Source: Pseudomonadota bacterium
GTDB taxonomy: Bacteria; Desulfobacterota; Desulfobacteria; Desulfobacterales; JAHIVH01
Direction of reading: 5' to 3'
Length of the DNA stretch: 64,000 bases
Assembly: GCA_018816735.1 (NCBI GenBank)
Contig: JAHIVH010000036.1
Location: 20,667-84,666, forward strand
The translations under genes were made by a program, and so were the position numbers. The notes under the pieces were generated by a model that searched no databases, was not told where the DNA came from, and worked only from the letters and a program-made list of their open reading frames with translations. Of this stretch, positions 37,758 through 60,397 are shown piece after piece. Numbering within the stretch: position 1 is the first letter of the stretch; each line of letters opens with the position of its first letter.

Positions 37758-37831
37758 TAAAAGAATGGTTATATTGTCCCGTGTCCTTAAGAATTAATGG
37801 ATGTTATACAAAACCGAATTCAGGGTAAAAC

Positions 37832-42971: not shown

Positions 42972-43076
42972 ATAATCTGACACAAAACCGAAACAGCGTT
43001 TTCTCAAGCTACCTTCCATAATCATCTATCTCCTGTTGTTTCAGCTAATTATAACAGTCCCCCCAGGCCTTTACCG

Positions 43077-43092
43077 TGGCATGCCGATTGCT
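43077..43092 (+). promoter_or_regulatory. sigma54 (-24/-12) promoter P1.
   Basis: TGGCATGCCGATTGCT has GG-N10-GC spacing and matches TGGCAC-N5-TTGCW at all but one position. It lies 56 bp upstream of the kinase ATG at 43148. Confidence 0.7.
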
Positions 43093-43147: not shown

Positions 43148-44875
43148 ATGGAAGAAAATAATCAAAAACCCCGTTCTCCCTATTACCGGTCTTTAATGCG
43201 CCGGATGGTCGCAGTGGTCATCGTTGTCTCATTCACGCCGATGATTCTCATTACCTGGGGCTTTCTTTACCAGTTTAAAATCCTTTACCATGAAAAGGTC
43301 TATGCGCATCTTGAGGAGCTGGTCCAGAAACACCAGCAGAATATTGATGTCTTTCTTAAAGAAAAACTGGCAGATGTCAAATTTCTTGCGACCAACTTCA
43401 GTTTTGATCAACTGTCAAATGAACAATTTCTGAAACAGAAGCTGATATCGCTTGACAAGGAACATGGTCCTGTCATTACCGATTTGGGCATCATCGATGA
43501 AAAGGGCATTCAGTTAGCCTATGCCGGTCCTTTCAAACTTGAAAAAGCCAACTATGAGGCTGCAGACTGGTTTAGAAAATCAATTCTCAGTGAATACTAT
43601 ATTTCAGATGTCTTCCTTGGTTTAAGAGGGCACCCCCATTTCATTATTGCGGTCCGAAATGAAAACGAGGAGCAGAGCTGGCTTTTACGGGCAACCATCA
43701 ATTTCGAAGCATTTAACTCGCTTGTGGAAAATCTTCGGGTCGGGACCACCGGTTTTGCCTTTATTTTAAACAGGGAAGGTAAATTTCAGACCAAACCGAG
43801 CATTAACATCACGGAAACACAGGCAAAAGGATACCTGAAAGAGTATATGCAACTGAAAGACAACCGTTCGATTACAGAAGAATCTCATTTGAACGGGCAG
43901 CCCATCATTCATGTGTCATCTCTTTTGAAAAACGAGGAATGGCTCATGATATTTCAGCAGAATGCATCTGATGCGTTCAGGGATTTCATTCATGCCAGGC
44001 GTATTGCGCTGGTCATATCGTTTGTTGGCGGATGCGCCATCATCACCATGGCATTTTTAATGTCAAGGCGCATGGTAAAAATCATTGCCAAAAGAGATGA
44101 AGAAAACAAAATGATGAACCAGCAGGTCATTGAAACAGGCAAGCTTGCATCTATCGGAGAACTTGCAGCCGGAATTGCCCATGAAATCAATAATCCTGTG
44201 GCGATCATGGTAGAAGAAGCCGGATGGATCGAAGACCTTCTGGAAGAAGAGGAATTCCAGAACAGTAAAAATATGGAAGAATTCAGACGGGCATTGACCC
44301 AGATCAACACCCAAGGGAAACGATGCAAGGGCATCACGCACAAACTGCTCAGTTTTGCCAGAAAAACCGATTCCCGGGTCCATGACGTGGAAGTTAACGC
44401 GCTTATCACAGAAATTGTCGGTATCTCCGCCCAAATGGCCAAGTACAGCAATATAAATATTGAAACAGAATTTGAGGAAGGACTTCCCTATATTGAGATT
44501 TCCCCTTCTGAAATGCAGCAGGTGCTTCTGAACCTGATCAATAATGCCATCTATGCCATGGAAAAAACAGGAGGCACAATAAAAATCGGCACAAAATTAA
44601 GTCAGCTTGAAAAGGATCATATTGTCATCATTGTTGAGGATAACGGACCGGGCATACCGGAGTCAAATCTGCCGCGTATATTTGATCCGTTTTTCACCAC
44701 AAAACCGGTAGGAAAAGGAACAGGCCTGGGTCTCTCCATATGTTACGGAATCATCCAGAAAATGGGCGGGAAAATCGATGTGCATAGTGCTGTTGATTCG
44801 GGAACGCGTTTCCGTATCTGGATACCGTTTCAAAAGGAAGATCAGCAAAGTACAAAACACGAGTCAAACGCATAA
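43148..44875 (+). CDS. Sensor histidine kinase with a Cache-like periplasmic domain (paralog A).
   Basis: TM1, about 260 aa extracytoplasmic region, TM2. H-box [14 protein letters not shown]-box [10 protein letters not shown]-boxes DNGPGIP and GTGLGLSI. Confidence 0.9.
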
Positions 44876-44922
44876 GGATTAGATGAATATTTACAAGGAC
44901 AACCCAAAAAAAGGAGAATCAG

Positions 44923-45354
44923 ATGAGCGACGCAAACATACTTTTGGTAGATGATGAACAACCGTTTGTCGAAACGATGACAAAGCGGCTGGAAAAAAGA
45001 AACTATAAGGTCAATGCTGCTTTTAGCGGTTATGATGCCATCAAAATACTTGAAAAGGAAAGTCAGGTGGAAGTTGTTATTTTAGATGTGAAGATGCCTG
45101 GCAAGGATGGTATCGGCGTACTTCAGGAAATCAAACAGAAATATCCACTGATAGAAGTAATCATGCTCACCGGCCATGCAACAGTTGAATCGGCGATTCA
45201 GGGGATGAAACTGGGGGCATATGACTACCTCATGAAACCGTGCGATATGAATGAACTGGTGGCAAAAGTGGACGAGGCAACCGGTAAAAAAAGGGCCCAT
45301 GAAGAAAAAATCGTGGAAGCCAGAATGAAAAGGATCACAGGTACACGCATTTAA
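44923..45354 (+). CDS. Single-domain response regulator (receiver only) with a helical C-terminal tail.
   Basis: LLVDDE, phospho-acceptor context VILDVKMPG, LTGH and a conserved Lys (MKP). There is no output domain. Strong AAGGAG RBS. Confidence 0.9.
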   Translation: MSDANILLVDDEQPFVETMTKRLEKRNYKVNAAFSGYDAIKILEKESQVEVVILDVKMPGKDGIGVLQEIKQKYPLIEVIMLTGHATVESAIQGMKLGAYDYLMKPCDMNELVAKVDEATGKKRAHEEKIVEARMKRITGTRI

Positions 45355-45372
45355 AGGAAAAGTATATCAACT

Positions 45373-45765
45373 ATGATTAGACACCAGAAAGAAGCGCTCA
45401 AACTGCTTTTGGTTGATGATGAGGAAGGCTACGTTAATGTACTGTCAAACCGGCTTTCAAAACGAGGCATCCAGGTCAGAAAAACAACCAGCGGGACTGA
45501 AGCCATTCAAACCCTCCGAAAGGAAGAGTTTGATGTGGCGATTCTGGATTTGAAAATGGAAGACATGGACGGCATAGAAGTATTGAAGATATTCCGGAAA
45601 ATGGCCCCTGAAATGGCCGTGATCATGCTCACAGGCCACGGCAGTGAAATAGCGGCAAAAGAAGGTATCGGTCTTGGGGCCTTTGATTATTTGACAAAAC
45701 CATGCGTACTGGAAGATTTGCTGGAAAAGATTTATGAAGCAGATCACGCCCGGCGTGAAGATTAA
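45373..45765 (+). CDS. Single-domain response regulator (receiver only).
   Basis: LLVDDEE, AILDLKMEDMDG, LTGH, TKP. 130 aa with no output domain. Confidence 0.9.
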   Translation: MIRHQKEALKLLLVDDEEGYVNVLSNRLSKRGIQVRKTTSGTEAIQTLRKEEFDVAILDLKMEDMDGIEVLKIFRKMAPEMAVIMLTGHGSEIAAKEGIGLGAFDYLTKPCVLEDLLEKIYEADHARRED

Positions 45766-45863
45766 AAACGTTACCTGACAGCATGGTCCGGAAGCTTCTT
45801 TCGTTGACAACAGCAAGGATACAGGAATCAATCAACCGGACAGCAATCAGACAAGGAGTTAAA

Positions 45864-47447
45864 ATGTTCTATAAAACAAATGGATTCAAACTTTGCCTGG
45901 CTTTATTACTGGGCATTATTGTTCTTTTCCTTCCCCGGCCGGAAGGAACCAAATTCAAGATATCGGGTGACCCGGATCAGGCACTTTTTAAATCCGTCGA
46001 CACTGTTTTCAACATCCTGAAAATTGAAACCGGAAAAAAGAAGAATACCTATATTCTTGAGGCAATGCATCCGGGAACACCGGAAGCCACAGCGTCATTT
46101 CTCCAAAATCAGGTTAAGACGGGAAATCTTTCGGGCATAGAAGTCAGTTATGTGGATGGCTTGCCCTTGAAAGCCAAACGGTTTCTGGCTGTTCTGGTTG
46201 TCCTTGTGTTTTTGTTCATTGTCGAGCCCATACCGCTCGAAATTACAGCAGTAATGATCGGCGTATCTTTAGTCTTGATGGGTATTACAGATACAAAAGA
46301 TGCCTGGGCGCCTTATATGCATCCGGTCGTTATTTTTATCATGTGCTGCCTGATATTTGCCATTTCACTCGACAAGGCAGGCTTAACCAAAAGGCTTGGT
46401 TATTTTATCACCAAAAAGGCAGGAACCAGTGTCACGCGATTTACGTTTATTCTTGCCATCAGCCTGGGGCTGGCCTCCACATTCATGCATGATGCAGCTG
46501 CCTGCGCCATTGGCATCATCACCATGCTGCCCCTGATGAGGGCTGTCGGCATTGAGCCTCATACCAATACAGCCAAATTCATGATGCTCTCCCTTCCCTT
46601 TGCCTGCTCTTGTGGTGGCATGGGAAGCCTTATCGGCGGCGGGAGGTGCATGGTTTCTGCCGCATTTTTAAAGGAGTTTACCGGCATCGAAATTACATTC
46701 TTTGACTGGATCAAATACGCCATGCCCGCGGCCATTCTCACCGTGCCCATCGCAGTTTTGATTGTCTATTTTGTTTACAGGCCTGATCCCAAATTCAAAC
46801 TCCCCCAATTTGATGAAGATCTTGGCAAATGGAACGCCCTTGAAATTAAAACATCGGTCATCATCGGCCTTTCCTTTATCGCATGGCTTACCAAAGGGAT
46901 TCATGGTATGGACTACTCAATCACCGGTATGGTTGGCGTTGCCGCCCTTGTCCTTTTTGGCGTGCTGAAATGGGAGGATATCAATGACAATCTTGAGTGG
47001 GGAACCGCCCTGTTTATCTTTGGCGGCGGTATATCCCTGGGTCTTGCCATGGGATACTCCGGTGCCGCCGATTATTTTGCCAATATGTTCTTCCCGCTTA
47101 TTGAAGGCAAAGGCTGGTTGATTCTGTTTATCGGCGTGGGCGTTTTCGGAGCGCTTGTCACCAATGCCATGGCAAATGTGGCCGCAGCCGCGTTGATTTT
47201 GCCCATCGTGATTCCCATGGCCCAGCTTGAAGGCGTCAATCCCACCATCCTGGCATTATGTCTGGGGATGGCCACGTCTTTTGCCATGCTGCTGGTGATT
47301 GGATGTCCGCCCAATGCCATCTCGTATAGTTACAGATATTTCAAGTCAGGGGATTTGACCAAGGTAGGTCTTGTGGCCACACCGATCCTTCTTCTGGTAT
47401 TGGTTGTTGTCGCAGCCACCTGGTGGAAAATTTTAGGGCTTGTTTAA
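45864..47447 (+). CDS. DASS/SLC13-like (ion-transporter superfamily) permease 1.
   Basis: Multi-TM protein with the GCPPNAISY re-entrant-loop motif. AAGGAG RBS before the ATG at 45864; I reject the ORF-track start at 45783. Confidence 0.85.
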   Translation: MFYKTNGFKLCLALLLGIIVLFLPRPEGTKFKISGDPDQALFKSVDTVFNILKIETGKKKNTYILEAMHPGTPEATASFLQNQVKTGNLSGIEVSYVDGLPLKAKRFLAVLVVLVFLFIVEPIPLEITAVMIGVSLVLMGITDTKDAWAPYMHPVVIFIMCCLIFAISLDKAGLTKRLGYFITKKAGTSVTRFTFILAISLGLASTFMHDAAACAIGIITMLPLMRAVGIEPHTNTAKFMMLSLPFACSCGGMGSLIGGGRCMVSAAFLKEFTGIEITFFDWIKYAMPAAILTVPIAVLIVYFVYRPDPKFKLPQFDEDLGKWNALEIKTSVIIGLSFIAWLTKGIHGMDYSITGMVGVAALVLFGVLKWEDINDNLEWGTALFIFGGGISLGLAMGYSGAADYFANMFFPLIEGKGWLILFIGVGVFGALVTNAMANVAAAALILPIVIPMAQLEGVNPTILALCLGMATSFAMLLVIGCPPNAISYSYRYFKSGDLTKVGLVATPILLLVLVVVAATWWKILGLV

Positions 47448-47475
47448 AAACGGCCAGGCCTGATAAAAGGATTTG

Positions 47476-48636
47476 ATGCTCATGGACGCAATCAAAACAC
47501 TTCTCGTGGATGATGAGAAAAGTTTTATTGAAACAATAGAAAAACGGCTTAAAAAAAGAGGGTTTGCACCCTATTTGGCCGAGAGCGGCAAGAAATGCCT
47601 GGAAATCCTTAAGGATTCAACCATCCATATCGTGGTTTCAGATGTGAAGATGCCGGGTATAGGTGGCATCGACCTTTTGAAAAAAATAAAACAGGACTAC
47701 CCGGCCATTGAAGTGATTCTGCTCACAGGGCATGCCAATCCGAACGATGGCGTGGAAGGGATCAAGCAGGGTGCGTTTGACTACCTGACCAAACCGATCG
47801 AACTTGAGCATCTCATCGGAAAAATAAACCAGGCATGGGACAAAATCCAGAGGATCAAGGAAAAAAAAGAGGAAGAAGCGTTTCGGGAACGGATGAAAAA
47901 ACAATTGATTGCAAATGAGCGCCTGGCATCCTTAGGCACATTATCTGCAGGCGTTGCCCATGAAATCAATAATCCACTGGCCATTATCAAGGAATCTGCC
48001 GGTTGGATGAATACAATCATAAGCGGGATGAACTTATCAACCGTTCCCCGACTGAATGATTTAAAGACAGCCATTGACAAAATAGAGAAAAGTGTGGAAC
48101 GGGCAAGAAGAATCACCCATCAGCTGTTAAGTTCCGTAAAAAAGCAGGATACGGCGCTTTCGGAAATCCGTCTGAATGAATTTCTTCAGGAAACCATCCA
48201 TCTGGTTAAAAGAAGTTTACCAGAAAAAAATATTAAAATGTCCCTTGACACCCGTCATACCGATGGCATCCTGTGGACTGATCCCTATCAGCTCCGTCAG
48301 ATATTGATCAATCTTTTTACAAATTCGGCAAGAGCCATATCAAACGAAGGATGGATTGATCTTACGGTGGCTGACACCGGAGATCTTGTTTCAATAAGCC
48401 TGAAGGATAACGGAGAGGGCATTGCTTATGAAAACCTTGAAAAAATCTTTGAACCTTTTTTTACCACCAGAGCACCTGGTGAAGGAACAGGGTTAGGTTT
48501 GTTTATCACCCGGGGCATTGTGGAAAAACTGGGCGGAAAAATTGAGGTGGAGAGTCAGGTCGGGGAAGGAGCCTTATTCACGCTTGTTTTGCCAAAATTC
48601 AATAAAAATTGTGACACCCAAAAAGGGAGAAATTAA
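47476..48636 (+). CDS. Cytoplasmic receiver-histidine kinase fusion (REC-HisKA-HATPase).
   Basis: N-terminal REC ([22 protein letters not shown]), then H-box [13 protein letters not shown] and G-boxes DNGEGIA and GTGLGLFI. No TM segment. The start is 47476 or 47482. Confidence 0.9.
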
Positions 48637-48639
48637 CAT

Positions 48640-49086
48640 ATGGGAAAAATCAGAATACCAACCAGAGTACTTGTTGTGGACGATGAAAAAGATTTTGTAG
48701 AAATACTCTCAAACCGTCTGGAAGAAGCCGGTGAAACCGTTTCCAGCGCAAACAGCGGTCAGGAATGCCTCAAGGTGCTTGATGAAAAAACGATTGATGT
48801 GGTCATCCTTGATATAAAAATGCCGGGCATGGATGGGATGGATGTATTGAAAGAAATCAAAAAGCGCCACCCCCTGGTCGAAGTGATCATGCTGACCGGC
48901 CATGGCAGTACGGAAACAGCCGTGGACGGCATGAAAGCAGGTGCGTTTGATTATCTGTTAAAACCTGCGGATTTCAGTGAACTGACAAAAAAACTCGTTG
49001 GCGCCCGGAAACGGAAAGACGACCAGGAAGAACGCATCAGGCAGGCTGAAGTTAAACTGCTTTTAAGAAAAGGCGGAAATATATAA
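48640..49086 (+). CDS. Single-domain response regulator with a helical C-terminal tail.
   Basis: VLVVDDE, VILDIKMPGMDG, LTGH, LKP. No output domain. Confidence 0.9.
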   Translation: MGKIRIPTRVLVVDDEKDFVEILSNRLEEAGETVSSANSGQECLKVLDEKTIDVVILDIKMPGMDGMDVLKEIKKRHPLVEVIMLTGHGSTETAVDGMKAGAFDYLLKPADFSELTKKLVGARKRKDDQEERIRQAEVKLLLRKGGNI

Positions 49087-49099
49087 AGGACCTGAAAGA

Positions 49100-50791
49100 A
49101 TGGTAAAAGATAGCGTCTACAAATCCTTGAAGAATGTTATTCTCGTGAGCATGATCGTTGTGCCGTTCATACCGTTTATCATGACGGTAGGTACCGGATA
49201 TTACTACTTCACCTATTCACTTGAGAACAGCACCATATCGAGCATGCAAAGGATTGTAGACGACCATCGGCTGATGATAGAATCCTTTTTAACCGAACGC
49301 AAAGCGGATCTGGAATATGCCCTTGATGCCATAAGCATGGAAGATCTGAAATCTCCTGACACGGTTGATCATGTATTTGAAAGGCTTCAACGGAAATCCA
49401 CAGCCTTTTTCGACCTGGGTGTATTTGACGGGGAAGGCGTTCATCTGGCCTATCATGGACCGTTTAAATTGACAGGAAAAAATTACGGCAGGGAAGAATG
49501 GTTTAAAAGAGTCCTTCAAAATGGCTATTATATCAGTGACGTTTTCTCCGGTTTCCGGGAGGTGCCTCACTTTATCATCGCGGTGTGCCGTGAAGAAAAG
49601 AACGGGAAAAAAATCATCCGGGCGACTATTGATACCAAAATTTTCAATAACATGGTAGAAAAAGTTCGTATCGGTAAAACAGGAGAAGCCTATATCATTA
49701 ACAAAGACGGTATTTTACAGACAGAAAGGCGCTCAGGCGGCGAACTAATGACCAATGATCCGGACCATTTGGCATACAAAGATTTTCACAAAGGGATACT
49801 TACGTTTATCCATAAGGACGTAAAAGGAAATACCCATTTGTATGCCACAACGTGGATTCTGGATAACAAATGGATTCTGGTTGTCAGGCAGGAAAAGGCG
49901 GATGCGTTTAAATCGCTCCGCCTGGCCGCCTATCTTATCATTCTGATTTCCATGGCAGGCGGAATCGTGATCACAAGCCTTGCGTTTTATATATCCGGAA
50001 AAATTGTGAAATGGATCAGAAAAACGGAATCGGAAAAAGGCGATATGGAAAAACAGCTGATAAGTGCCACCAAGCTGGCAGAGCTGGGTGAAATGGCTGC
50101 AGGTTTTGCCCATGAGATCAACAATCCCCTTCAGATCATGAAAAGCGAATATGCGCTGATAAAAACAATTCTTCCGGCCATCAAAGAAAAAAAATCTGAA
50201 AACTTTTCCGACGACATGAAAGAAATTGAAGAATCGATGGATCAGATTGAGCTTCAGATCAACCGCTGCTCCAAAATCACCCATGCCATCTTAAAATTCG
50301 GCAGATACAGTGAACCTGTTTCCCAGGCCATATCCCTGAAAACATTTCTGCAGGAAATGATAGACATCATTTCAAAAAAAGCCTCGGTAAACGGTATCAG
50401 GCTCTCAATAGAACTCTCACATGACACCCCGGATATCAAAGGAGACCCGGCACAACTTCAGCAGGTCATCATCAACCTGTTTAACAATGCCATGGATGCG
50501 ATTATGGAAAGGCATGGTGTGAGTGGCGGTATTCTTGCAGTCAAATCCGGAAAGAGATTAACAAATAAACATGCTTTCATTTCCGTATCCGATAATGGTA
50601 CAGGGATTGCCCCTGAGCATTTAAAAAAAATCTTCACACCTTTTTTTACGACCAAACCGGTAGGAAAAGGCACGGGCCTTGGCCTGTCTGTCTGCTATGG
50701 CATTATCGGCAATATGGGCGGCAGCATGGGTGTGGAAAGCGATACGGGAAATGGCACTATTTTTACCATCGTTCTTCCTGCAATATCTTGA
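49100..50791 (+). CDS. Sensor histidine kinase with a Cache-like periplasmic domain (paralog B).
   Basis: Same architecture as 43148-44875. Shared sensor blocks include GPFKL..NY...WF......YYISDVF.G.R..PHFIIAV. H-box [13 protein letters not shown]; G-boxes DNGTGIA and GTGLGLSV. Confidence 0.9.
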
Positions 50792-50808
50792 ACCTTATCT
50801 TGCTGGGT

Positions 50809-52581
50809 CTATTCTCCTTTCAGCCGGGTAAATGTGCCAATATCGGGCGGTTCAAACCTGACATACCTGCCTGAGTGCCATTTTAAAAAAATCAATGACG
50901 GATCATCAAACGCTTTTTTAAAATGAAAAGCGACCTTTTCAGGCCTGCCGTCTGTTGTCAAAGATAATATTTCGATGGTCAGTCCAGTCAGCTCGATTCT
51001 TTTTCCTTTTTGCAATGGATGCAATTGATCCCGAAAACCGGTACTACCCCGTTCTGAAAAATATCCGCCTTCGGGTTCAACGACCAGTGTCTGCGGATCG
51101 GTTCTCATAATTTTCAAATTATTTAAACCAGCGAAAAGAACCCTCAGGTGCATCGGTATTGAAAGGTTATAGCACATACGGGTGACAAGAAAATAAATAC
51201 CTTGCAGTGCGTCGACTGGATTTATCAGAACAAGGTCTTTGTCTGTGTAATCTGTTTGTGTCCCCAGATTCATTGCCGGCGCATGATACATCTTTTGGGT
51301 AAAATTATTAAAAATCATCATTTTCATGGAAAACAGCAAAGGAGAAAGAAACAAATGGACAGCGATTAAAATAATGACAAGGAAATTTGTCAAGATTCGC
51401 AAGAATTTCATATTTGGCAACCACGGTGCATTATGATGCCAGCTGAATATCAACTGCGCCAGGAGTGCTACTGCTCCCATACCGGTAAAAATAAACAGAC
51501 GGTCATCGCTAAAAGCGGCGCACATCAATATCGATGACAGGAAAAAACCTGTAAACCAAAAACGGGCTTTATTATCTGTGCGAAGCAGCGGGAAAATAAG
51601 TGTGAGACCAATCGCGCTTAAAACCAGCGTGGCAAACCACATTGGTGTCTTTACGGCTTCAGGCAGGATAAAAAATGTTGAAGGAGATATCCCCCATTCT
51701 CCCTGGAACATTACGGGAAGCCGTTTATGCAGGACTGATATGAATTCAAGCGGACTCTTGGCCGGGTCAATGTATGTCATTGAGCCGAAACTGCCAAAGC
51801 GGCCAATAGTATAAAAAATTCGCCAGGTAATTGTGACCATCATATACGGCAGCAGACTCAGTGCCCTATCTTTTAATCTCCGGTTATCTATAAACACACT
51901 ATAAGAAAAAATATAAAATATTGTAACAACGCCGTATTCTGCGGATAAAAGAGAAAGGATCAAACAAACAGGCGCAATGATATAACCGGCTTTCCAGGTA
52001 TCCTTTATTAAACGATCATGAGCGATAAGAGATGAAACACCAAAGAATGTGGCTATCATGGAATTTCTAGCGGCTATCCAACTGACATTCAAAAAGTGCG
52101 TATGGTCAAGGGCGTACAACAGCCCGGCAAGACCGGCAAGATGAGTGATACCCATTATTCTTCTGAAAAAGATCGATACGACCAGGACGACAGCGCCAAA
52201 CCAGAGTAGATTATGGAACAGCATAAATTCAGGTGAGTCAGGCAGAAATTGATAATCCAGCCAATGGGTAATTTCAGCCAACGGCCGCCAAAAAGAAATG
52301 CGAAGCCCTTCATATGTCCACCAGGGAAGATCCCCCCTGTCCAGCTGCTGTAAAAATTCTGCATGGTTTTTGGTCTGCCATGAAAACATGCCAAACAGCC
52401 GGAAGCCGTTTATTGGGTTGTCCATGGCAGAAGAATCCATAAATTTGATGCGATGAATATAGTCATCGACCTTAAACCCCGTAAACAAACCCGGCAGGCT
52501 TATAAACATGGCCAACAGTGACAGGATGACAGGCAAACGGGCATGGGTCAGCAGGGAAAACGCTTTTTCATATTTTTCCAT
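50809..52581 (-). CDS. Polytopic membrane protein, tentatively a GT-C-fold (ArnT/PMT-like) glycosyltransferase.
   Basis: About 12 TM helices, a DD motif (KVDDYIH) in the first predicted loop, and a soluble C-terminal domain of about 130 aa. The assignment is by architecture only. Confidence 0.5.
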   Translation of the reverse strand: MEKYEKAFSLLTHARLPVILSLLAMFISLPGLFTGFKVDDYIHRIKFMDSSAMDNPINGFRLFGMFSWQTKNHAEFLQQLDRGDLPWWTYEGLRISFWRPLAEITHWLDYQFLPDSPEFMLFHNLLWFGAVVLVVSIFFRRIMGITHLAGLAGLLYALDHTHFLNVSWIAARNSMIATFFGVSSLIAHDRLIKDTWKAGYIIAPVCLILSLLSAEYGVVTIFYIFSYSVFIDNRRLKDRALSLLPYMMVTITWRIFYTIGRFGSFGSMTYIDPAKSPLEFISVLHKRLPVMFQGEWGISPSTFFILPEAVKTPMWFATLVLSAIGLTLIFPLLRTDNKARFWFTGFFLSSILMCAAFSDDRLFIFTGMGAVALLAQLIFSWHHNAPWLPNMKFLRILTNFLVIILIAVHLFLSPLLFSMKMMIFNNFTQKMYHAPAMNLGTQTDYTDKDLVLINPVDALQGIYFLVTRMCYNLSIPMHLRVLFAGLNNLKIMRTDPQTLVVEPEGGYFSERGSTGFRDQLHPLQKGKRIELTGLTIEILSLTTDGRPEKVAFHFKKAFDDPSLIFLKWHSGRYVRFEPPDIGTFTRLKGE

Positions 52582-52778
52582 ACATAACTACTTATTCTGA
52601 CTTCGTTAAAATTCAACACGGCTGCCAGCTTCAATGCAGAAAACCGCGCTCGCAATTCTATAGCCGACAGTCGCTTTTGATGACGAATGGGGTGGCATTG
52701 TACGCAATTCCTGTCAAGCGTATTTAAACCTTGGTAAACATGATATTGAAAATCCAATAATAAAATTACAGATACAGT

Positions 52779-52793
52779 TTTACAAGATGTAAA
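52779..52793. promoter_or_regulatory. Palindromic upstream activator-like site, copy 2.
   Basis: TTTACAAGATGTAAA is a perfect 6-3-6 palindrome. It begins 118 bp upstream of the -24 TGGCA at 52897. AT-rich, bendable DNA lies in between. Confidence 0.5.
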
Positions 52794-52896
52794 AAACATC
52801 GACATGAAAATTGGACCTGCTTTCACCCCCCAAAAAAATCATAATAATTTATAATATATTTTCAGGTAGTTGTATATAAAAATTTTCAAACTGGTC

Positions 52897-52912
52897 TGGC
52901 ACAAAGGTTGCC
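52897..52912 (+). promoter_or_regulatory. sigma54 (-24/-12) promoter P2.
   Basis: TGGCACAAAGGTTGCC is an exact TGGCAC-N5-TTGC. It lies about 100 bp upstream of the receiver gene at 53014. Confidence 0.75.
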
Positions 52913-53013
52913 ACACATAAAAAATGAAAATGCATATTTTTTTTTCTTCAGGTCATTTCCTGGCAGAAGCTGAAGCTGACAGGATAATTATTATTTAATC
53001 GAAACAGGGGGTA

Positions 53014-53472
53014 ATGATGGAAAAATTGAAACTGTTGCTTGTGGATGATGAGAAAAGATTTCTTGAAACCACAAGCAAGCTCCTTTCTAGAAAAGGACTG
53101 GAAGTTTACACGGCAACAAATGGCCAGGATGCGCTTGACCTAATTCAAAAGCAAATCATCCATGTGGTCATTCTGGACGTGAAAATGCCGGGCATGGATG
53201 GCAACACCGTATTAAAACGGATAAAGGACAGTTATCCGCTTGTGGAAGTCATTATGTTAACCGGCCATGGAACGATTGAATCTGCAGTGGAAGGGCTGAA
53301 AAGCGGGGCCACAGACTATCTGGTCAAGCCTGCAGATATAGAAGAACTGGCATCCAAAGCAGAAGAAGCCTATGAAAAACGGCTCAAACAGGAAGAAAAA
53401 ATCCGCATGGCCCGTGCCCGGATGTTCATGAAATCACCCAGGGAAATTTTGAAAGAGGCAGACAAACTTTAA
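53014..53472 (+). CDS. Single-domain response regulator with a helical C-terminal tail.
   Basis: LLVDDE, VILDVKMPGMDG, LTGH, VKP. No output domain. Confidence 0.9.
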   Translation: MMEKLKLLLVDDEKRFLETTSKLLSRKGLEVYTATNGQDALDLIQKQIIHVVILDVKMPGMDGNTVLKRIKDSYPLVEVIMLTGHGTIESAVEGLKSGATDYLVKPADIEELASKAEEAYEKRLKQEEKIRMARARMFMKSPREILKEADKL

Positions 53473-53507
53473 TCAATCGTGTGAATCGTTCCTTTTCGGA
53501 GGTGAAT

Positions 53508-55361
53508 ATGCAGCAAACAAAATCGAAAAAAATAACCGGATATGATAAGTATGTGGACTGGAAGATATTTATTGTTCCGGTTGTCCTGTTTTTTGTCTTT
53601 ATCTTCATGCCAACACCCTATGGCATGAAAGATGTGGGTATGGAATACAACATCGGGCAGAAATCCGTAATCAACCTGATCACCGAATCCCTTTTTGGTG
53701 TAAAAGGCAATGAGGCGGCACAATGGCAGCTTCTGACCGCCCAAATCATGGAACAGAACATGCAGATGGGGGCACTTAACCGAAAGCGATATCTGAAACG
53801 GGATATCAAGTGGTGCAGCAGCAATAAAATCGAAGCAGACAAATCCAACTTTGAGAAAGCCTATGCATTTATTGATTCTCAAATTGACGACCAAACGTAT
53901 CTTTCCTTGATGCAAAATGCCCTCAAACACCGGAAAGAAGGCCTGAAGTATGAAAACCTCACCGGTTCGGATAAAAAATCAGCCGACAAAGGCGCCTGGC
54001 ACATCAAGGTGGCTATCGCCATGAGCGTATTTGTTGTCTTATGCTTTTTGACCGAATGTATCCCCTTGCCAGGCGTTGCCTTCTGTATAGGGCTTATTCT
54101 GGTATTTACAGGTGTTCTTTCGAGAAAAGAAGTGGCCATGCTCTATTGGGATGATGCGTGCTGGTTTATCATGGGAAGTCTCATGTTCGCCGCAGCTTTC
54201 GTAAAAACCGGCGTGGACAAACGGGTATGCCTGATGATGTTCAAGAAACTGGCTACACCCAATGTCAAATGGATCACCCTGATCTTCTTCATCATCATTA
54301 CTCCTCTTGCCGCGTTTATCTCGGATCATGCGCTTGCGGCCATGTTTCTTCCCATAGGCATGCTTCTCTATCAGAACAGCCTGACACGGGAAACACCGGA
54401 TGATCCGGAACTCGCCAAAATGCTTATGATCACCATCGCCATGGCTTGCAACCTGGGAGGGCCGGGTTCACCGTCAGGCGGCGCCAGAAACGTCATCATG
54501 ATGACCTACCTCTCCGATATGTTTGGCATGGATATCGGCTATTTCCAGTGGATGATCTACTGTTTTCCATTCGTCATGGTCATGATCCCCATTGGATGGT
54601 TTTTCATCAATTTTCGGTTTAAGCCGCAAATTCACTCTCTGGCACCTGCCATGAAACACCTTCAAACCGAAATAGGGAAAATGGGGGATTGGAACCGATC
54701 ACAGATATGGGCACTGATCATCTTTGTCGTCATGGTCTTTTTCTGGTTCACGGAAAAAACATTTTACGAAATGGGAATACTCCCGATCCGAATGGGGATC
54801 GGTGTGGTAGCAGTAGCCGGCGCAGTCGCCTATCTTCTGACAGGCGTGGTGAACTGGCGGGATTATCAGGAAAAAGTGGATTGGGGTGTGGTCTGGCTCT
54901 ATGCAGGCGCCATCATCTTCGGCCGGACGCTTGACAGCACTGGTGCGGCTTATTGGCTAGCCAGATCCGTTCTCGATGCGCTCGCACCTCTGGGAATGAA
55001 TGCAGGGCTGCCATTAATGGCCCTTTCAAATGGCATGACCGCAATTCTCACCAATCTGATGGCTGATGGTCCGGCTGCAGCAGCAATTGGACCGATTACA
55101 CTTAACATGGCAGGGCTTGCCCATCCCGGAACCTATTTTCTACCATTCATGGCCATGTCCACAGCCATTGCTTCTTCTTTTGCCTATTGCCTGATTATAG
55201 GAACGCCACCCAATGCAATCGTATATGCAAGCGGCTATCTTGAACCCAAGGATTTTTTGAGAGTGGGTATACCGCTTTGGTTTATTACGAACATCGTTCT
55301 TCTTGTTCTGACAGGTGTATACTGGATGGTTATAGGATTTGGAGAAATGCCTGGCTTTTAG
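53508..55361 (+). CDS. DASS/SLC13-like permease 2, with a large hydrophilic insert after TM1.
   Basis: GTPPNAIVY and PSGGARNV re-entrant-loop-like motifs. GGAGG RBS before the ATG at 53508; the ORF track starts at GTG 53481. Confidence 0.85.
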   Translation: MQQTKSKKITGYDKYVDWKIFIVPVVLFFVFIFMPTPYGMKDVGMEYNIGQKSVINLITESLFGVKGNEAAQWQLLTAQIMEQNMQMGALNRKRYLKRDIKWCSSNKIEADKSNFEKAYAFIDSQIDDQTYLSLMQNALKHRKEGLKYENLTGSDKKSADKGAWHIKVAIAMSVFVVLCFLTECIPLPGVAFCIGLILVFTGVLSRKEVAMLYWDDACWFIMGSLMFAAAFVKTGVDKRVCLMMFKKLATPNVKWITLIFFIIITPLAAFISDHALAAMFLPIGMLLYQNSLTRETPDDPELAKMLMITIAMACNLGGPGSPSGGARNVIMMTYLSDMFGMDIGYFQWMIYCFPFVMVMIPIGWFFINFRFKPQIHSLAPAMKHLQTEIGKMGDWNRSQIWALIIFVVMVFFWFTEKTFYEMGILPIRMGIGVVAVAGAVAYLLTGVVNWRDYQEKVDWGVVWLYAGAIIFGRTLDSTGAAYWLARSVLDALAPLGMNAGLPLMALSNGMTAILTNLMADGPAAAAIGPITLNMAGLAHPGTYFLPFMAMSTAIASSFAYCLIIGTPPNAIVYASGYLEPKDFLRVGIPLWFITNIVLLVLTGVYWMVIGFGEMPGF

Positions 55362-55398
55362 GTAATGGCAGTTTGAAATGAATAAAAGGAGTCACATC

Positions 55399-55545
55399 AT
55401 GAACCAGGACCTTGACCAAAAAAAAATGTTTATCTTTTCAAAAGGGAAAATGTATTTTTCGAAAGATACAGAAAGAAGAATCTGTTTTTTTCTCACACTG
55501 ACCATGTTGATTTCAGCGGCTTTGTTTAAGGCAGGGATCATTTGA
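55399..55545 (+). CDS. Candidate 48-aa small membrane protein (below the ORF-track size cutoff).
   Basis: AAGGAG RBS 8 nt before the ATG. Translation: MNQDLDQKKMFIFSKGKMYFSKDTERRICFFLTLTMLISAALFKAGII, with one C-terminal hydrophobic helix. It sits between the DASS-2 and Yip1-like genes. Confidence 0.35.
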   Translation: MNQDLDQKKMFIFSKGKMYFSKDTERRICFFLTLTMLISAALFKAGII

Positions 55546-55569
55546 CACAAGCGAAAGAAGGAACATGAT

Positions 55570-56103
55570 ATGCATCATACGTCTTTTTCAGCACATTATT
55601 ATGTGACAACACTCTCAGGCCTTCTCAGAAAGCCCGGCGTTTTTTTCAGGGAATCCCTTGATCAGGAGACATCTCTCCGGGCATTCCTCTTTTTACTGAT
55701 ATCAGGTGTTTTCTCTACAGCGGCAGCGCTTCTGATGAATCCCGATATCAGGGCACTCCTACCCACAGGAATTCTTTTTGTGAATGCTATTGGGATGTCT
55801 GTGCTTGCCGCTTTTACCGGATATGGCATCATGGTCATGATGGTCGGAAAAAAAATATCTTTTGCCAGATTTTTCAATATTTACGCCTTTTCCTCAGGCG
55901 TGATCCTTCTGGCCTCATGGATACCTTTTTTGGTCATTATCACAGAACCCTGGCGATGGATACTGATCGGCACCGGGCTCGTCAAGGGAGGTCAGATGAA
56001 AAAGTTTCAGGCATTTATGATCATTATCCTCTCAATCACGGTCATGACCCTTTTGTTCTGGTCGATTCTGCCTGTCTTGTCCGTTGTCAAAGGAAAAGGA
56101 TAA
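55570..56103 (+). CDS. Yip1-domain-like integral membrane protein.
   Basis: 177 aa with five predicted TM helices after a short cytoplasmic N-terminus. The family call is by architecture and memory only. Confidence 0.55.
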   Translation: MHHTSFSAHYYVTTLSGLLRKPGVFFRESLDQETSLRAFLFLLISGVFSTAAALLMNPDIRALLPTGILFVNAIGMSVLAAFTGYGIMVMMVGKKISFARFFNIYAFSSGVILLASWIPFLVIITEPWRWILIGTGLVKGGQMKKFQAFMIIILSITVMTLLFWSILPVLSVVKGKG

Positions 56104-56182
56104 GGATAAACAAAATGGCTGTTTCATGATTTTTAATTGGATATTTACGGCATGATTATTAATAAAAAAGGAGACAAACCCC

Positions 56183-57088
56183 ATGAATAAAATAATTAAA
56201 GTCCTGATGGTGGATGACGAGGAACAGTTTCGAAAAACCACCAAAAAAATTCTTGAAAAAAAAGGATTTGAGACCATCATGGCTGAGAACGGCAGGCAAG
56301 CCATTGATATGCTCAAAGAAAAACCGGATGTGGTCGTGCTGGATATTAAAATGGAAGGCATGGATGGCCATGAAACACTGGATGAAATCAAAAAGCGCTC
56401 ACCTGATTTGCCGGTCATTATGCTCACAGGCCATGGTGCACTGCCATCTGCCAAAGAGGCATTAACCCAGGGGGCCTTTGATTACCTGTCAAAGCCCTGT
56501 GATATTGATCTTCTGGCTTCGAAAATTAAAGACGCCTGCAAATTTAAATTTCAGGATGACGTGGACACGGAAAAAAAAGTTTCTGACATCATGATCCCCC
56601 TGAACGAATATACACTGGTCGAAGCAAACCAGACTATTGAAGAGGCAGTCAAAAAACTGAAAGACTCTTTTCTGTCCAAAGTCGCCACAAGCCGGTTGAT
56701 GGAAACCGGCCATCGTTCCATTCTTGTCACGGGAAAGGATAAAAGTATTCTTGGCCTTTTAACGATTCTTGACCTGCTGAACGCCATTATGCCGGGCTAC
56801 CTCTCTGCGCCAAGGCCGTCTACTGCGGACAGCGTCAGGTACTCTCCCATGTTCTGGACCGGTATGTTTACAAGAGAAACCCTGGAACTAAAGAAAATAC
56901 CCATAAGCCAGATCATGAGTCCTGCGCCCATTACCATTGATGAAGATGCCAATATCATGGAAGCCGCACACACCATTATCGAATTTGAAACAAGGCGGCT
57001 TCTTGTGATATCAAAGGGCAAACCGATTGGGATTGTCCGGGAGCAGGATCTGTTCTTTGAAATGGAGCGGATCATGTCGAGCCAATGA
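56183..57088 (+). CDS. Response regulator with a tandem CBS-domain output (REC-CBS-CBS).
   Basis: REC motifs (LMVDDEE, VVLDIKMEGMDG, LTGH, SKP), then two CBS repeats (VSDIMIPL... and ISQIMSPAPITID...GIVREQDL). Confidence 0.88.
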   Translation: MNKIIKVLMVDDEEQFRKTTKKILEKKGFETIMAENGRQAIDMLKEKPDVVVLDIKMEGMDGHETLDEIKKRSPDLPVIMLTGHGALPSAKEALTQGAFDYLSKPCDIDLLASKIKDACKFKFQDDVDTEKKVSDIMIPLNEYTLVEANQTIEEAVKKLKDSFLSKVATSRLMETGHRSILVTGKDKSILGLLTILDLLNAIMPGYLSAPRPSTADSVRYSPMFWTGMFTRETLELKKIPISQIMSPAPITIDEDANIMEAAHTIIEFETRRLLVISKGKPIGIVREQDLFFEMERIMSSQ

Positions 57089-57177: not shown

Positions 57178-58605
57178 TCAGGTGCTCATTTTAATCTTGT
57201 ACCGGTCTATCTTGGCAAGAAGCGTGGGCCGGGACAGGCCTAGAATTTTTGCAGCCTGGCTCCGGTTGCCTTGAGACAGGTTAAGGGCCTCCCGCGTCAG
57301 AATTTCTGCAAAATAATCCATAATATCCTCAAAGGTGTGCTCGGAAGAGGAGGACTGAATCTTTTGATGAACCCAGTCCCGCATGATTTTATCGATATCC
57401 GTCATGGTATCGGATGTGGGCATCCTGGAAAGATGATTCTCACCATCCGAGGTTCTCAGAATATCGTCTTTACTGATTGGTGTTCCCTGATTGAAAATCA
57501 GGGCTTTCTGAATCACATTGGCAAGCTCCCTGACGTTTCCCGGCCAGGGGTAAGTGATGAGTGCATTTTTAGCTTCTTTATCTGCGCCCGGATTGGGAAT
57601 GCCCATTGCATGGCTGAACCTGGATAAAAAATGATCTGCGAGAAAGGAAATATCTTCCGTTCTTTCCCGAAGTGGCGGCAAAGAGAGTGTCACTACTTTC
57701 AACCGGTAATATAAATCTTCCCTGAAGGTACCGCTTGAGACAGCTTCTTCAAGATTTCTGTTGGTTGCTGCAATGATCCGCACATCAACAGGGATGGCAT
57801 TTCGCCCGCCCAACCGTTCGATACTTTTTTCCTGCAAAAGACGGAGAATCTTTGATTGAATGTTAAACGGCATATCTCCGATTTCATCCAGGAAAACCGT
57901 CCCTCTGTTCGCCTGTTCGATTTTACCGACACGTCTTCCCGCGGCCCCTGTAAACGCGCCTTTTTCATATCCAAAGAGTTCACTCTCAAGCAGGGTCTCC
58001 GGTATGGCCACACAATTGATCACCAGGAACGACTGATCGTGTCTCTGACTGTGCTGGTAAACGGCACGTGCCACAAGCTCCTTGCCTGTTCCGGATTCTC
58101 CCCGGATAAGGACCGTTGCATCTGTGGGGGCCACACGCCCAATGGATTTGTATATCTCCTGCATGGGCTTGCTTTTTCCGACGATCGCGTCTTCTGATAC
58201 GTTTTCCGGCGAGACATCCATCTGAACCCGGGATCTCATGCATCGGCCCGCATGAAGCCCTTTTTTAATCAATTCAAGTATATCCGGTATTTCAAAAGGT
58301 TTCAGCACATAATCAAATGCGCCCATCTTGGTTGTTTCAATGGCGGTTTCTGTTGTACCATAAGCGGTCATGATAATCACCGGCAGTCTCGGCTCGATGC
58401 CGTGCATGATCTTGAATGCTTCAAACCCATTCATATCAGGCATTCTGACATCCATAATCACCAGATCGGGCATATCTCTTTTAACAACTTCAATGCCGGC
58501 AGCACCGGACGAGGCTGTCTGCGTTCTGTATCCTTCTTCGTCCAACACTTTTTTAAAACTGTTTCTCAGTTGAGGGTCATCATCCACAATAAGAATTGTT
58601 GTCAT
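57178..58605 (-). CDS. sigma54-dependent response regulator (NtrC/Fis family bEBP).
   Basis: REC ([19 protein letters not shown]), AAA+ with Walker A GESGTGKE, the GAFTGA loop ([15 protein letters not shown]), and a C-terminal Fis-type HTH ([16 protein letters not shown]). Confidence 0.93.
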
Positions 58606-60073
58606 TTCCTATATCCTTGCAAGGTAAAACTATTGTAAATATTGTACCGTTTCCCGGCTTTGAAACCAATGAAAGCATGCCGCCATGTTCATCGATAATA
58701 CGATTGGCAATGCTTAATCCCAGGCCCGTCCCCTCTTCCTTGGAACTGTAAAACGGTTGAAAAACAGTCTCCTGAACGGGTTCGGGAATACCCGGTCCAT
58801 TGTCCTGGACCTGAATCACCACCGATCCGCCAAACGGGTCAATGGTTTTCTCTCCTTCGATGATGGTAAGACGTCCCCCATCCCCCATAGCCTCACACGC
58901 ATTCACCATCAGATTAACCAGAACTTCCTTCAGCTGCTCCGGATCAACCGGAATCATGGGAAGTCTGGACTGCCTTTTCACAGTAACCCATGTGCCATAA
59001 GACTCCAGGCGATATTTTAAAAGCTGAAGGGCCATATCCACCACATCGGAAGGACTGATTGTCTGACGCTTTAATTTAGGCGGTCTTGAAAATTCCAGAA
59101 AATTTTTCAAGACTGTATCGATCTGCCTGATTTCTGCTGAAATCACTTCAAGATCCTCTTTTTGCGCAGAAGTCAGTTTCAAACTTCTCTCCAACGAGAA
59201 TAACCGCATTTTAACTGAAGTCAAAGGATTTCTGACACTGTGTGCAACTCCTGCCGCCAGTTTCCCCACTGTTGCCATTTTTTCAGCCTGGACAAGCTGA
59301 CCTTTGCTCGCAACAAGTTCTTCCCGGGTATGCCCGAAATCTGCAATCAAGCCATTCACCTGCTTCTTTAATGTTTTGACTTCATCGCCCGAAAGAAAAG
59401 TGGCCTGATCTGGTTCTATGCCGGAGGACAGTTCCCGGATGGGCTTGAACACCTGAATATAGAGAATAAAAATCAAAAAAAATACCAGAAGCGCATCAAC
59501 CGGAATGGCTATCCAGGCAAACACAGAAACCAGCCGTGACGCTTTTCGGTAGCTATTCATGGCAGATGTAATGCTCTTTTCGTGAATATCCCTGAATGTT
59601 TCACTGAGTTTTCTTATCTTAAAAAACTGGTCCCTGACGCCCCAGTGGGCCTCCGCACCTTCATCCTTTTTTCCTTCCTTGTAAAGGGCAATCACGTTGT
59701 CTCTTGAATAGGTGTAATGAAGGTATCCGGATTCAATATCATTCAAGATCCCTCTTGCATAGCTGTCTTTGGATGTCTCTCTTGCCCGTTCAAGGGATTT
59801 CATAAATTCGCTATGAAAATCATTGAGTTGGTCCAGCCATTTGGCAGCGTTGGTCAGAAAAAAATACGTGGTCAACCCCTTCTGCATCACAAGTGCTGCA
59901 TCCATTTTCTGGGCGGCAATCAGGGATGCCATATTATTTTCGATCCTGGACATATAAAGATACTGGGTTTTACGGATATGCCATACGGTTATCAGGGAAC
60001 CGGCAAGTGTGATAAGGGTTAAGAGCAGAATGATGAAAAAAAGCTTCTTTTGTAAACTCAGCCTGGCAAACAT
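58580..60073 (-). CDS. Membrane sensor histidine kinase, cognate partner of the NtrC-type regulator.
   Basis: TM1, helical periplasmic domain, TM2, HAMP-like linker. H-box LAAGVAHSVRNPL, N-box LMVNACEAM, G-boxes DNGPGIP and GTGLGLSI. The 3' end overlaps the regulator start by 26 nt. Confidence 0.9.
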   Translation of the reverse strand: MFARLSLQKKLFFIILLLTLITLAGSLITVWHIRKTQYLYMSRIENNMASLIAAQKMDAALVMQKGLTTYFFLTNAAKWLDQLNDFHSEFMKSLERARETSKDSYARGILNDIESGYLHYTYSRDNVIALYKEGKKDEGAEAHWGVRDQFFKIRKLSETFRDIHEKSITSAMNSYRKASRLVSVFAWIAIPVDALLVFFLIFILYIQVFKPIRELSSGIEPDQATFLSGDEVKTLKKQVNGLIADFGHTREELVASKGQLVQAEKMATVGKLAAGVAHSVRNPLTSVKMRLFSLERSLKLTSAQKEDLEVISAEIRQIDTVLKNFLEFSRPPKLKRQTISPSDVVDMALQLLKYRLESYGTWVTVKRQSRLPMIPVDPEQLKEVLVNLMVNACEAMGDGGRLTIIEGEKTIDPFGGSVVIQVQDNGPGIPEPVQETVFQPFYSSKEEGTGLGLSIANRIIDEHGGMLSLVSKPGNGTIFTIVLPCKDIGNDNNSYCG

Positions 60074-60261: not shown

Positions 60262-60276
60262 TTTACACACTGAAAA
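60262..60276. promoter_or_regulatory. Upstream activator-like site, copy 3 (one mismatch).
   Basis: TTTACACACTGAAAA has the same 6-3-6 frame with TGAAAA in place of TGTAAA. It begins 120 bp upstream of the -24 TGGCA at 60382. Confidence 0.4.
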
Positions 60277-60381: not shown

Positions 60382-60397
60382 TGGCACAGAACTTGCC
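60382..60397 (+). promoter_or_regulatory. sigma54 (-24/-12) promoter P3.
   Basis: TGGCACAGAACTTGCC is an exact TGGCAC-N5-TTGC. It lies about 90 bp upstream of the ATG at 60486. Confidence 0.75.

Follow-up and report, generated by a model that had tools for sequence, protein, structure and literature searches.

A putative sulfate-uptake control island in a Desulfobacterales genome: two DASS carriers, output-less receivers and a conserved enhancer and sigma-54 promoter signature

Introduction

Sulfate import is the first and rate-influencing step of dissimilatory sulfate reduction, and in marine sediments much of the carbon mineralisation is due to Desulfobacteraceae. The closest described system is the 30.5-kb 'DASS-type sulfate transporter' cluster of Desulfosarcina variabilis, which holds many two-component systems and CBS proteins and is related to clusters of Desulfobacteraceae and further sulfate reducers (PMC11887813, Sci Adv 2025). 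Its carriers were abundant and constitutive in six Desulfobacteraceae, the proteomes showing them under all 80 substrate conditions, non-carboxylate ones included, and the Cache sensors share conserved residues. According to the model proposed there, Cache kinases sense external sulfate and CBS proteins add the intracellular level; a 'putative protein-protein interaction' with the carriers was drawn dashed. The D. toluolica carriers TOL2_19410 and TOL2_19470 were placed in DASS clade C, and for D. autotrophicum a response of DASS paralogues to sulfate concentration was summarised (Marietou et al. 2018, PMC5840216). Here we analyse a stretch of 64,000 nucleotides from a Desulfobacterales genome (GenBank assembly GCA_018816735.1, contig JAHIVH010000036.1, positions 20,667 to 84,666), hereafter the window, in which two DASS carriers (T1 and T2) lie among genes for sensor kinases and receiver (REC) proteins. 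Judged by its genes and their order, this is a further copy of the published sulfate-reducer cluster.

The gene cluster as such is already on record. What is new is a conserved signature of enhancer and sigma-54 promoter, the probable activator and a link to TauE/TSUP carriers. PMC11887813 mentions no sigma-54 promoters, no TTTACA-N3-TGTAAA motif and no NtrC-type activator for this cluster, and neither the motif nor sigma-54 control of this cluster was found in PMC4641369 or PMC12316311. We judge it fairly probable that the locus is a Desulfobacteraceae sulfate-uptake control island, in which two DASS carriers with kinase/receiver branches of their own are transcribed from sigma-54 promoters through an adjacent pair of a four-helix-bundle (4HB) kinase and an NtrC-type activator. 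Regulation of the cluster had only been sketched before; the signature gives a wiring diagram made up of a DNA motif, a candidate activator with its kinase, and promoters. A regulator shared between DASS and TauE/TSUP clusters could moreover help to settle which carriers move sulfate and which signal controls them.

Sigma-54 promoters and an upstream palindrome

A first-pass annotation, made from the letters of the window, had described a dense array of kinases, receivers and permeases in two units: HK1, R1, R2, T1, RHK, R3 and HK2 in unit 1, and R4, T2, a 48-aa open reading frame (ORF), a Yip1-like membrane protein and a REC-CBS fusion in unit 2. ORF calling and domain assignment with Pfam and NCBIfam, the latter judged against its curated cut-offs, returned all 12 genes with these coordinates and domains (Table 1).

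Searching the 64 kb for the exact motif TGGCAY-N5-TTGC gave three matches (43077, 52897 and 60382) where 0.53 were expected, and each of these -24/-12 elements lies 57-105 nt upstream of an operon start, namely those of unit 1, unit 2 and the hybrid kinase gene. The palindrome TTTACA-N3-TGTAAA, allowing up to one mismatch, was present exactly three times (0.26 expected), once for each -24/-12 element, with 112-114 nt between palindrome centre and promoter in all three cases. The hybrid kinase gene probably belongs to the same regulon.

The same combination recurred in other genomes. A scan with T1, taking one genome per species, yielded 180 relatives; the loci of the best 80 of these (72-81% identical, nearly all from Desulfobacterales, Desulfatiglandales and kin) total 1.15 Mb and were searched for ORFs, which were then matched to the window proteins. 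They contained 85 palindromes and 61 palindrome-promoter pairs, 46 of them spaced 108-123 nt and distributed over 31 loci. In the background control, the same 80 loci with their sequence reversed, we found 5 palindromes and 0 pairs. Pairs stood before operon-first genes (HK2, DASS, HK1, R1, USP and cNMP-binding) and never before internal genes (R2 0/61, RHK 0/50, R3 0/77, activator 0/20). Of three pairs in the D. variabilis cluster, two directly precede DASS genes. Upstream of HK1 orthologues, the strict sigma-54 motif was found in 4 of 52.

The HK1-type promoters of Desulfobacula, Desulfobacter and Desulfospira (for example L016 at about 7280, L045 and L049) read TGGCATrTATCTTGAT or TGGCAYGTATCTTGTA. 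They have a perfect -24 element with GC changed to GA or GT at -12, are conserved across these genera and stand at the right distance from the enhancer; GA or GT at -12 is unusual for sigma-54 promoters. Many genomes (L016, L013, L029, L031, L045, L049 and L062) have in addition a second inverted repeat, (C/G)TGACA-N10-14-TGTCA(G/T), between palindrome and HK1-type promoter. Its CTGACA half follows the palindrome directly in the window (42977-42982) as it does in those genomes. IHF or a second regulator might bind this repeat.

A candidate activator shared with TauE/TSUP operons

The sole GAFTGA protein of the window is the NtrC-family activator, which together with its 4HB kinase forms a pair, inverted here (57178-60073), just beyond the genes of the first-pass annotation; rpoN does not lie in the 64-kb window. 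The activator stayed below every NCBIfam equivalog cut-off and is not an orthologue of NtrC, AtoC or ZraR. The first-pass view that the five receivers lack DNA-binding outputs was borne out by Pfam. Extended to the system, the statement fails, since a sigma-54 activator adjoins and both units carry sigma-54 promoters.

Among the 80 loci, with those having enough flank as denominator for this and all other adjacency counts, a 4HB kinase and activator directly follow R3 in 12 of 37, or in 15 of 37 if three with an intervening REC-CBS gene are included. These activators are 59-64% identical to that of the window, and by gene order the pair is a conserved partner of the cluster.

Activator orthologues of 65-69% identity are widespread. 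Six further loci were retrieved via such orthologues alone and not via carriers. In all six the activator is immediately preceded by a histidine kinase gene, with a Pfam 4HB domain in five of the kinases, and in five of the six an exact palindrome with a promoter at 105-117 nt occurs near the kinase/activator operon. On contigs of the Desulfobaccales and Syntrophobacterales type, this combination of palindrome and promoter stands before a Usp-DVU0150-TauE(TSUP)-DUF4881 operon and also before a gene for a single-domain receiver. In locus L087 (4506-8221, minus strand) it precedes an operon that opens with PBP_like_2-REC-REC-REC-TauE and continues with an unannotated gene, one resembling PPDK and one for a Cache kinase. 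This is good comparative evidence, not proof, that motif and activator travel together also in lineages whose carrier is of the TauE/TSUP and not the DASS family. TauE/TSUP proteins are candidate carriers of sulfate or sulfur oxyanions (PMC5840216), and COG4191 kinases, CheY-like receivers and UspA are over-represented in the sigma-54 regulon of Desulfobacteria (PMC12316311).

Sigma-54 control of a putative sulfur-oxyanion carrier is known from the DVU0151/DVU0150-DVU0146 operon of D. vulgaris (Kazakov et al. 2015, PMC4641369), and it is a DVU0150-family/TauE operon that adjoins orthologues of the window's activator in Desulfobaccales and Syntrophobacterales. In D. vulgaris, however, the activator is of the one-component type, carries an atypical GAFSEA motif and differs in its DNA-binding domain, and no TTTACA/TGTAAA motif was reported there (PMC4641369). 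In its widest form the proposal would make one 4HB-kinase/NtrC-type pair the master regulator of sulfate import across several orders, acting through TTTACA-N3-TGTAAA about 113 nt upstream and driving either DASS or TauE/TSUP carriers together with output-less receivers; phosphorylated receivers and REC-CBS would then bind the carriers and gate uptake fast, in the manner of PII-AmtB or inducer exclusion. We regard this wider scheme as speculative and rather unlikely.

Two side observations concern these loci. The theme of receivers around a carrier recurs in L087 with an unrelated carrier family. Proteins with PPDK_N and PEP-utilizers domains, about 750-890 aa long, flank the kinase/activator pair and TauE operons in L084, L085, L087, L088 and L089, and in L087 one of them lies inside the receiver-rich operon.

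Conservation of gene order and comparison with the published cluster

The arrangement is not unique to this strain and recurs in the 80 loci, so that the dense kinase/receiver/permease module seen in the first-pass annotation is real and conserved. T1 is directly followed by RHK in 62 of 66 loci and RHK by R3 in 51 of 54; R2 stands directly 5' of T1 in 50 of 73, and HK1 followed by R1 lies upstream in 36 of 45. Loci without the upstream Cache kinase, too, keep the near-invariant T1-RHK-R3 adjacency.

A second recurrent module runs HK2, R4, T2, small ORF, Yip1 and REC-CBS, with HK2 and R4 contiguous in L006, L012, L017, L035 and the D. variabilis locus L082. HK2 thus groups ancestrally with the DASS2 genes and not with the unit 1 genes. 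As this module recurs elsewhere and is split in the window by the gene for X590, the two units originally drawn are not evolutionary units, and on this comparison their boundaries are evolutionary accidents. No match to X590 was found in Pfam, NCBIfam or PDB sequences, and the 80 loci hold no homologue. By the same comparison it is a strain-specific insertion between HK2 and R4, which other genomes have side by side. The small ORF was recovered by tblastn between DASS2 and Yip1 in six other loci, with the motif YF(S/T)KE.ER..FF.LT..ML. Its conservation indicates that it encodes a genuine small membrane protein.

Among its named relatives, T2 comes closest to the D. variabilis 'sodium/sulfate symporter' P0015 (80% identical). 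The locus L082 (CP159846.1) reads Usp-CBS-Usp-REC-CacheHK-REC-DASS-52aa-176aa-REC/CBS-DASS-CacheHK-REC-DASS, hence Cache kinase, REC, DASS, small ORF (52 aa there), Yip1-like protein and REC-CBS occur in the order seen in the window; identities are 51% for HK2, 62% for R4, 80% for T2, 34% for Yip1 and 62% for REC-CBS. The taxonomic range of the two versions is the same, and further sets of DASS, Cache kinase and REC genes are present. The published model also shares with the circuit proposed below the sensing of the outside by Cache kinases and a second, CBS-based level. The window version is shorter and without USP and stand-alone CBS genes, its HK2 is separated from the module by the strain-specific gene, and its 4HB-kinase/activator pair is inverted. 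The window does not stem from any of the published strains: its exact T1 was found only in a Logan assembly of run SRR6514274. Identity with D. toluolica Tol2 in particular was rejected, as the best T1 match is 81% identical and in Tol2 a CBS protein precedes the second DASS carrier. The receivers are labelled 'WalR type' in PMC11887813; by NCBIfam those of the window are NtrC-family.

Features of the window proteins

Coordinates of all features are collected in Table 1.

Table 1. Genes and candidate regulatory elements of the control island and its flank (window coordinates)
Feature	Position	Strand	Basis and remarks
HK1, membrane sensor histidine kinase	43148..44875	+	dCache_1-HisKA-HATPase (Pfam); H-box AHEINNP; orthologues median 57% identity
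R1, REC-only receiver	44923..45354	+	Pfam; C-terminal helical tail kept in 59 orthologues
R2, REC-only receiver, no tail	45373..45765	+	Pfam; directly 5' of DASS1
T1, DASS/SLC13-type carrier 1	45864..47447	+	PF00939, TIGR00785; ORF opens 45783
RHK, soluble kinase, LvrB-like architecture	47473..48636	+	REC-HisKA-HATPase (Pfam, NCBIfam)
R3, REC-only receiver, conserved C-terminal tail	48640..49086	+	Pfam
HK2, second dCache_1 kinase	49100..50791	+	Pfam; ancestrally first gene of DASS2 module
X590, 590-aa polytopic membrane protein	50809..52581	-	no family match; judged outside system
R4, REC-only receiver, C-terminal tail	53014..53472	+	Pfam; 62% identical to receiver preceding D. variabilis DASS
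T2, DASS carrier 2, 617 aa from M10	53508..55361	+	PF00939, TIGR00785; ORF opens 53481
Small single-transmembrane protein, 48 aa from M8	55378..55545	+	tblastn; conserved between T2 and Yip1
Yip1-domain membrane protein	55570..56103	+	Pfam; syntenic orthologues 34-45% identical
RCBS (REC-CBS), receiver fused to two CBS domains	56183..57088	+	Pfam; 62% identical to D. variabilis counterpart
NtrC-family sigma-54 activator	57178..58605	-	REC-AAA+(GAFTGA)-HTH_8 (Pfam)
4HB_MCP-type membrane histidine kinase	58580..60073	-	Pfam; H-box AHSVRNP; overlaps activator gene by 26 nt
Hybrid sensor kinase, at least 1171 aa, runs off window end	60486..64000	+	dCache_1-HAMP-GAF-HisKA-HATPase-REC x3 (Pfam)
Candidate upstream activating sequence, unit 1: TTTACAAATTGTAAA	42957..42971	.	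centre 114 nt upstream of -24 GG
-24/-12 element, unit 1: TGGCATgccgaTTGC	43077..43091	+	57 nt before HK1 ATG
Candidate upstream activating sequence, unit 2: TTTACAAGATGTAAA	52779..52793	.	centre 112 nt upstream of -24 GG
-24/-12 element, unit 2: TGGCACaaaggTTGC	52897..52911	+	about 100 nt before R4 ATG
Third palindrome: TTTACACACTGAAAA, 1 mismatch (TTTACA-N3-TGAAAA)	60262..60276	.	114 nt upstream of third -24/-12 element
Third sigma-54-type element: TGGCACagaacTTGC	60382..60396	+	before hybrid kinase gene

The conserved start of T1 is M28 (45864), giving the 98-bp gap that had been reported, and that of T2 is M10 (53508), T2 orthologues being 616-617 aa long. Both exceed the TIGR00785 cut-off of 198.6 bits (T1 234.7, T2 216.4), with Pfam DASS E-values of 2.9e-52 for T1 and 3.7e-48 for T2, and they are 29% identical to each other. 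The paralogy first noticed between HK1 and HK2 was confirmed by 36% identity over the full length, and the block GPFKL...YYISDVF...PHFIIAV is present in both. Alignment of all seven REC domains of the area showed an invariant acidic pair (D10/D11), phospho-acceptor D55, T83 and K105, and the H-boxes of all kinases are intact. The REC-histidine-kinase architecture of RHK is that of the Leptospira hybrid LvrB, whose structure 8vc9 was matched by the kinase core of HK1. Residues 4-375 of RHK aligned to positions 1-376 of 377 of the LvrB model with a score of 130.9 bits, below the cut-off of 500; RHK is therefore not an orthologue, and the biological context of LvrB is unrelated. R1, R3 and R4 carry a C-terminal helical tail, KR..EE(K/R)I(R/V).A, which resembles the linker between REC and DHp of RHK.

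Proposed signalling circuit and role of the receivers

In the circuit that we propose, T1 and T2 probably import sulfate for dissimilatory reduction, and both operons would start, as their sequence signatures indicate, at sigma-54 promoters with the enhancer TTTACA-N3-TGTAAA about 113 nt upstream. The 4HB kinase, possibly on sensing sulfate outside the cell or a related signal, would phosphorylate the NtrC-type activator, which would bind the palindrome enhancer and switch on both carrier operons and the hybrid kinase gene. A four-helix-bundle periplasmic sensor is the type that senses nitrate in NarX. Two further branches are envisaged: in branch A, accompanying T1, HK1 would phosphorylate R1, R2 and the receiver of RHK, and RHK would phosphorylate R3; in branch B, accompanying T2, the small transmembrane protein and Yip1, HK2 would phosphorylate R4 and REC-CBS. 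The receivers would most likely act by phosphorylation-dependent tuning of carrier activity or of kinases, with the CBS pair supplying a further input from adenylates or energy state.

Support for separate branches comes from a comparison of a few residues by eye. The H-box is AHEINNP in HK1, RHK and HK2 and AHSVRNP in the 4HB kinase, and the residues following the phospho-histidine differ among the first three. Helix alpha-1 of the receivers has '..RL' in R1, R2, the RHK receiver and R3, and 'TT.K(L/I)L' in R4 and REC-CBS. Together with the conserved adjacencies, these H-box/DHp and alpha-1 groups suggest three insulated branches, namely HK1/RHK with R1, R2, R3 and T1, HK2 with R4, REC-CBS and T2, and the 4HB kinase with the activator. 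The term phosphorelay, applied to the locus initially, does not hold in the strict sense, as no Hpt domain was found in any protein scanned, the C-terminus of the hybrid kinase lying beyond the window; the REC-kinase fusion suggests a kinase cascade instead.

As the receivers have no DNA-binding domains, they must act through contacts with other proteins. Control of the carriers by receivers at a level other than transcription, raised in the first-pass annotation, is a live idea. Direct gating is attractive and putative; the data agree equally well with roles as sinks or connectors. Single-domain receivers such as the CheY2 and Spo0F types often serve as sinks or intermediates, and the receivers here might likewise never touch the carriers but act as phosphate sinks, insulators or connectors between paralogous kinases, leaving the carriers as plain sigma-54 targets. 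Their NtrC-family sequences are consistent with this alternative, and a tail like the RHK linker fits docking to a kinase or activator as well as docking to a carrier. The 120 best T2 relatives listed include no DASS fusion with REC, CBS or USP, a weak negative that points the same way. On the other side stand the near-invariance of T1-RHK-R3 irrespective of the Cache kinase and the receiver-rich operon around another carrier family in L087. R3, moreover, would by gene order correspond to the D. toluolica response regulator TOL2_C19430, which belongs to the constitutive proteome of that species, as would fit a stoichiometric effector. On balance we consider pure sinks or connectors unlikely, and retain the island with carrier-linked receiver branches as the preferred reading.

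Carrier type and substrate

T1 and T2 belong by sequence to the fold family of VcINDY and SLC13 (NaS1, NaDC, NaCT), with E-values of 1e-29 to 1e-38; the internal repeat is detectable and the TM10b motif PPN(A) is kept in both. They differ from these proteins in an extra N-terminal transmembrane segment and a variable loop of 70-125 aa. For physical contact between carrier and kinase that shapes signalling, as in co-sensing pairs of the DctA-DcuS/DctB type, adjacency is the one hint. As the extra periplasmic loop is the least conserved part of T1, a specific docking domain is weakly disfavoured.

Our best-supported guess for the substrate is sulfate in its role as electron acceptor and not as a scavenged nutrient. 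It is favoured by the restriction of the carriers to sulfate reducers, their constitutive abundance in 80 proteomes, the sulfate-dependent expression of paralogues and the regulator shared with TauE/TSUP operons. Where the substrate had been left undecided and nutrient scavenging suggested, proteomes and expression data in the literature point to uptake of sulfate for dissimilatory reduction (PMC11887813, PMC5840216).

The layout also invites comparison with organic-acid systems. In rhizobial DctB/DctD-dctA, a double-Cache kinase and an NtrC-family activator act on a sigma-54 promoter with enhancer in front of an anion carrier gene. By analogy, T1 and T2 could import di-/tricarboxylates or another organic anion that the Cache kinases sense, with the sigma-54 activator inducing the carrier. 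DASS proteins are mainly carboxylate carriers, VcINDY and SLC13 being the closest solved structures; the JGI name of the orthologues is 'sodium-dependent dicarboxylate transporter', and dCache kinase, NtrC-type activator and sigma-54 promoter reproduce the DctB/DctD/dctA layout. Furthermore, C4-dicarboxylate transport sensor proteins are among the COG4191 members enriched in the sigma-54 regulon of Desulfobacteria (PMC12316311). The likeness is incomplete, however. DctB/DctD connects one kinase to one DNA-binding regulator, whereas in the window the Cache kinases go with output-less receivers and the activator has a 4HB kinase of its own; dctA encodes a carrier of the DAACS family, whereas those of the window are DASS proteins whose substrate is probably inorganic. 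Against organic acids speak the nearly complete confinement of the top 80 T1 relatives to sulfate-reducing Desulfobacterota, the abundance of the carriers on non-carboxylate as on all other substrates (PMC11887813), paralogue expression that tracks sulfate concentration in D. autotrophicum (PMC5840216), the loss of the carboxylate- and Na+-binding SNT motifs from T1 and T2, and the same activator and enhancer accompanying the sulfur-oxyanion-linked TauE/TSUP family in other lineages. We consider an organic-acid system unlikely.

Several observations weigh against a sulfate-uptake island under sigma-54 control. For clade-C DASS carriers, sulfate was deduced from expression and abundance only. 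In the VcINDY alignment both SNT motifs are replaced, by HDA and ANV in T1 and by SDH and ADG in T2, and so is the TM5b motif SPPN (GGGRC in T1, GGARN in T2). The T1 replacements HDA and ANV are invariant in 82 orthologues, and the core residues of T1 are more than 90% invariant. Since the SNT motifs are replaced, Na+-coupled chemistry is not implied, and the label 'Na+/sulfate symporter' is provisional. Constitutive carriers argue against strong transcriptional switching in the conditions tested (PMC11887813). In a relaxed scan the enhancer-promoter pair stood immediately upstream in 17 of 51 HK1 orthologues, the rest having other genes in front, and many of the 17 use the -12 variant TTGA or TTGT. 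The enhancer is assigned to the activator through co-localisation; the activator-seeded locus L086 is without the motif, the 21.8-kb D. variabilis stretch has the motif and no activator gene, and Desulfobacteria encode 50 or more such activators (PMC12316311). Kinase-receiver pairing, finally, was read from few residues.

Upstream operons and other observations

The operon upstream of HK1, called pst-like at first, deserves this name in that PstS, PstC and PstA scored above the NCBIfam cut-offs and a PstB-like ATPase below; the suggested link to the island found no support, pst being no conserved neighbour and weak periplasmic binding protein matches (24-31% identity) occurring in 4 of the 80 loci. 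A switch for scavenging phosphate, or nutrient anions in general, tied to this operon is very improbable, for although the PstS/PstC/PstA/PstB-like genes end 217 bp before HK1 and the eukaryotic DASS relatives Pho87/90/91 carry phosphate, the neighbourhood is not conserved, HK1 is set apart from pst by an enhancer and sigma-54 promoter of its own, and PhoU, PhoB or PhoR-type proteins are not present.

A search of the window against Rfam gave no match, and an inverted-repeat search returned only AT-rich palindromes. The PstB-like ATPase (42250-42930, plus strand) has 226 aa and covers model positions 2-214 of 248 with 256.5 bits, against a cut-off of 343.2. It is without the C-terminal 34 or so model positions and has the same length in the independent assembly L081. 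Directly upstream of the pst operon lies a znuABC-like operon (ZnuA/ABC-ATPase/ABC-3; 36816-39431, plus strand), which makes this region a run of uptake systems.

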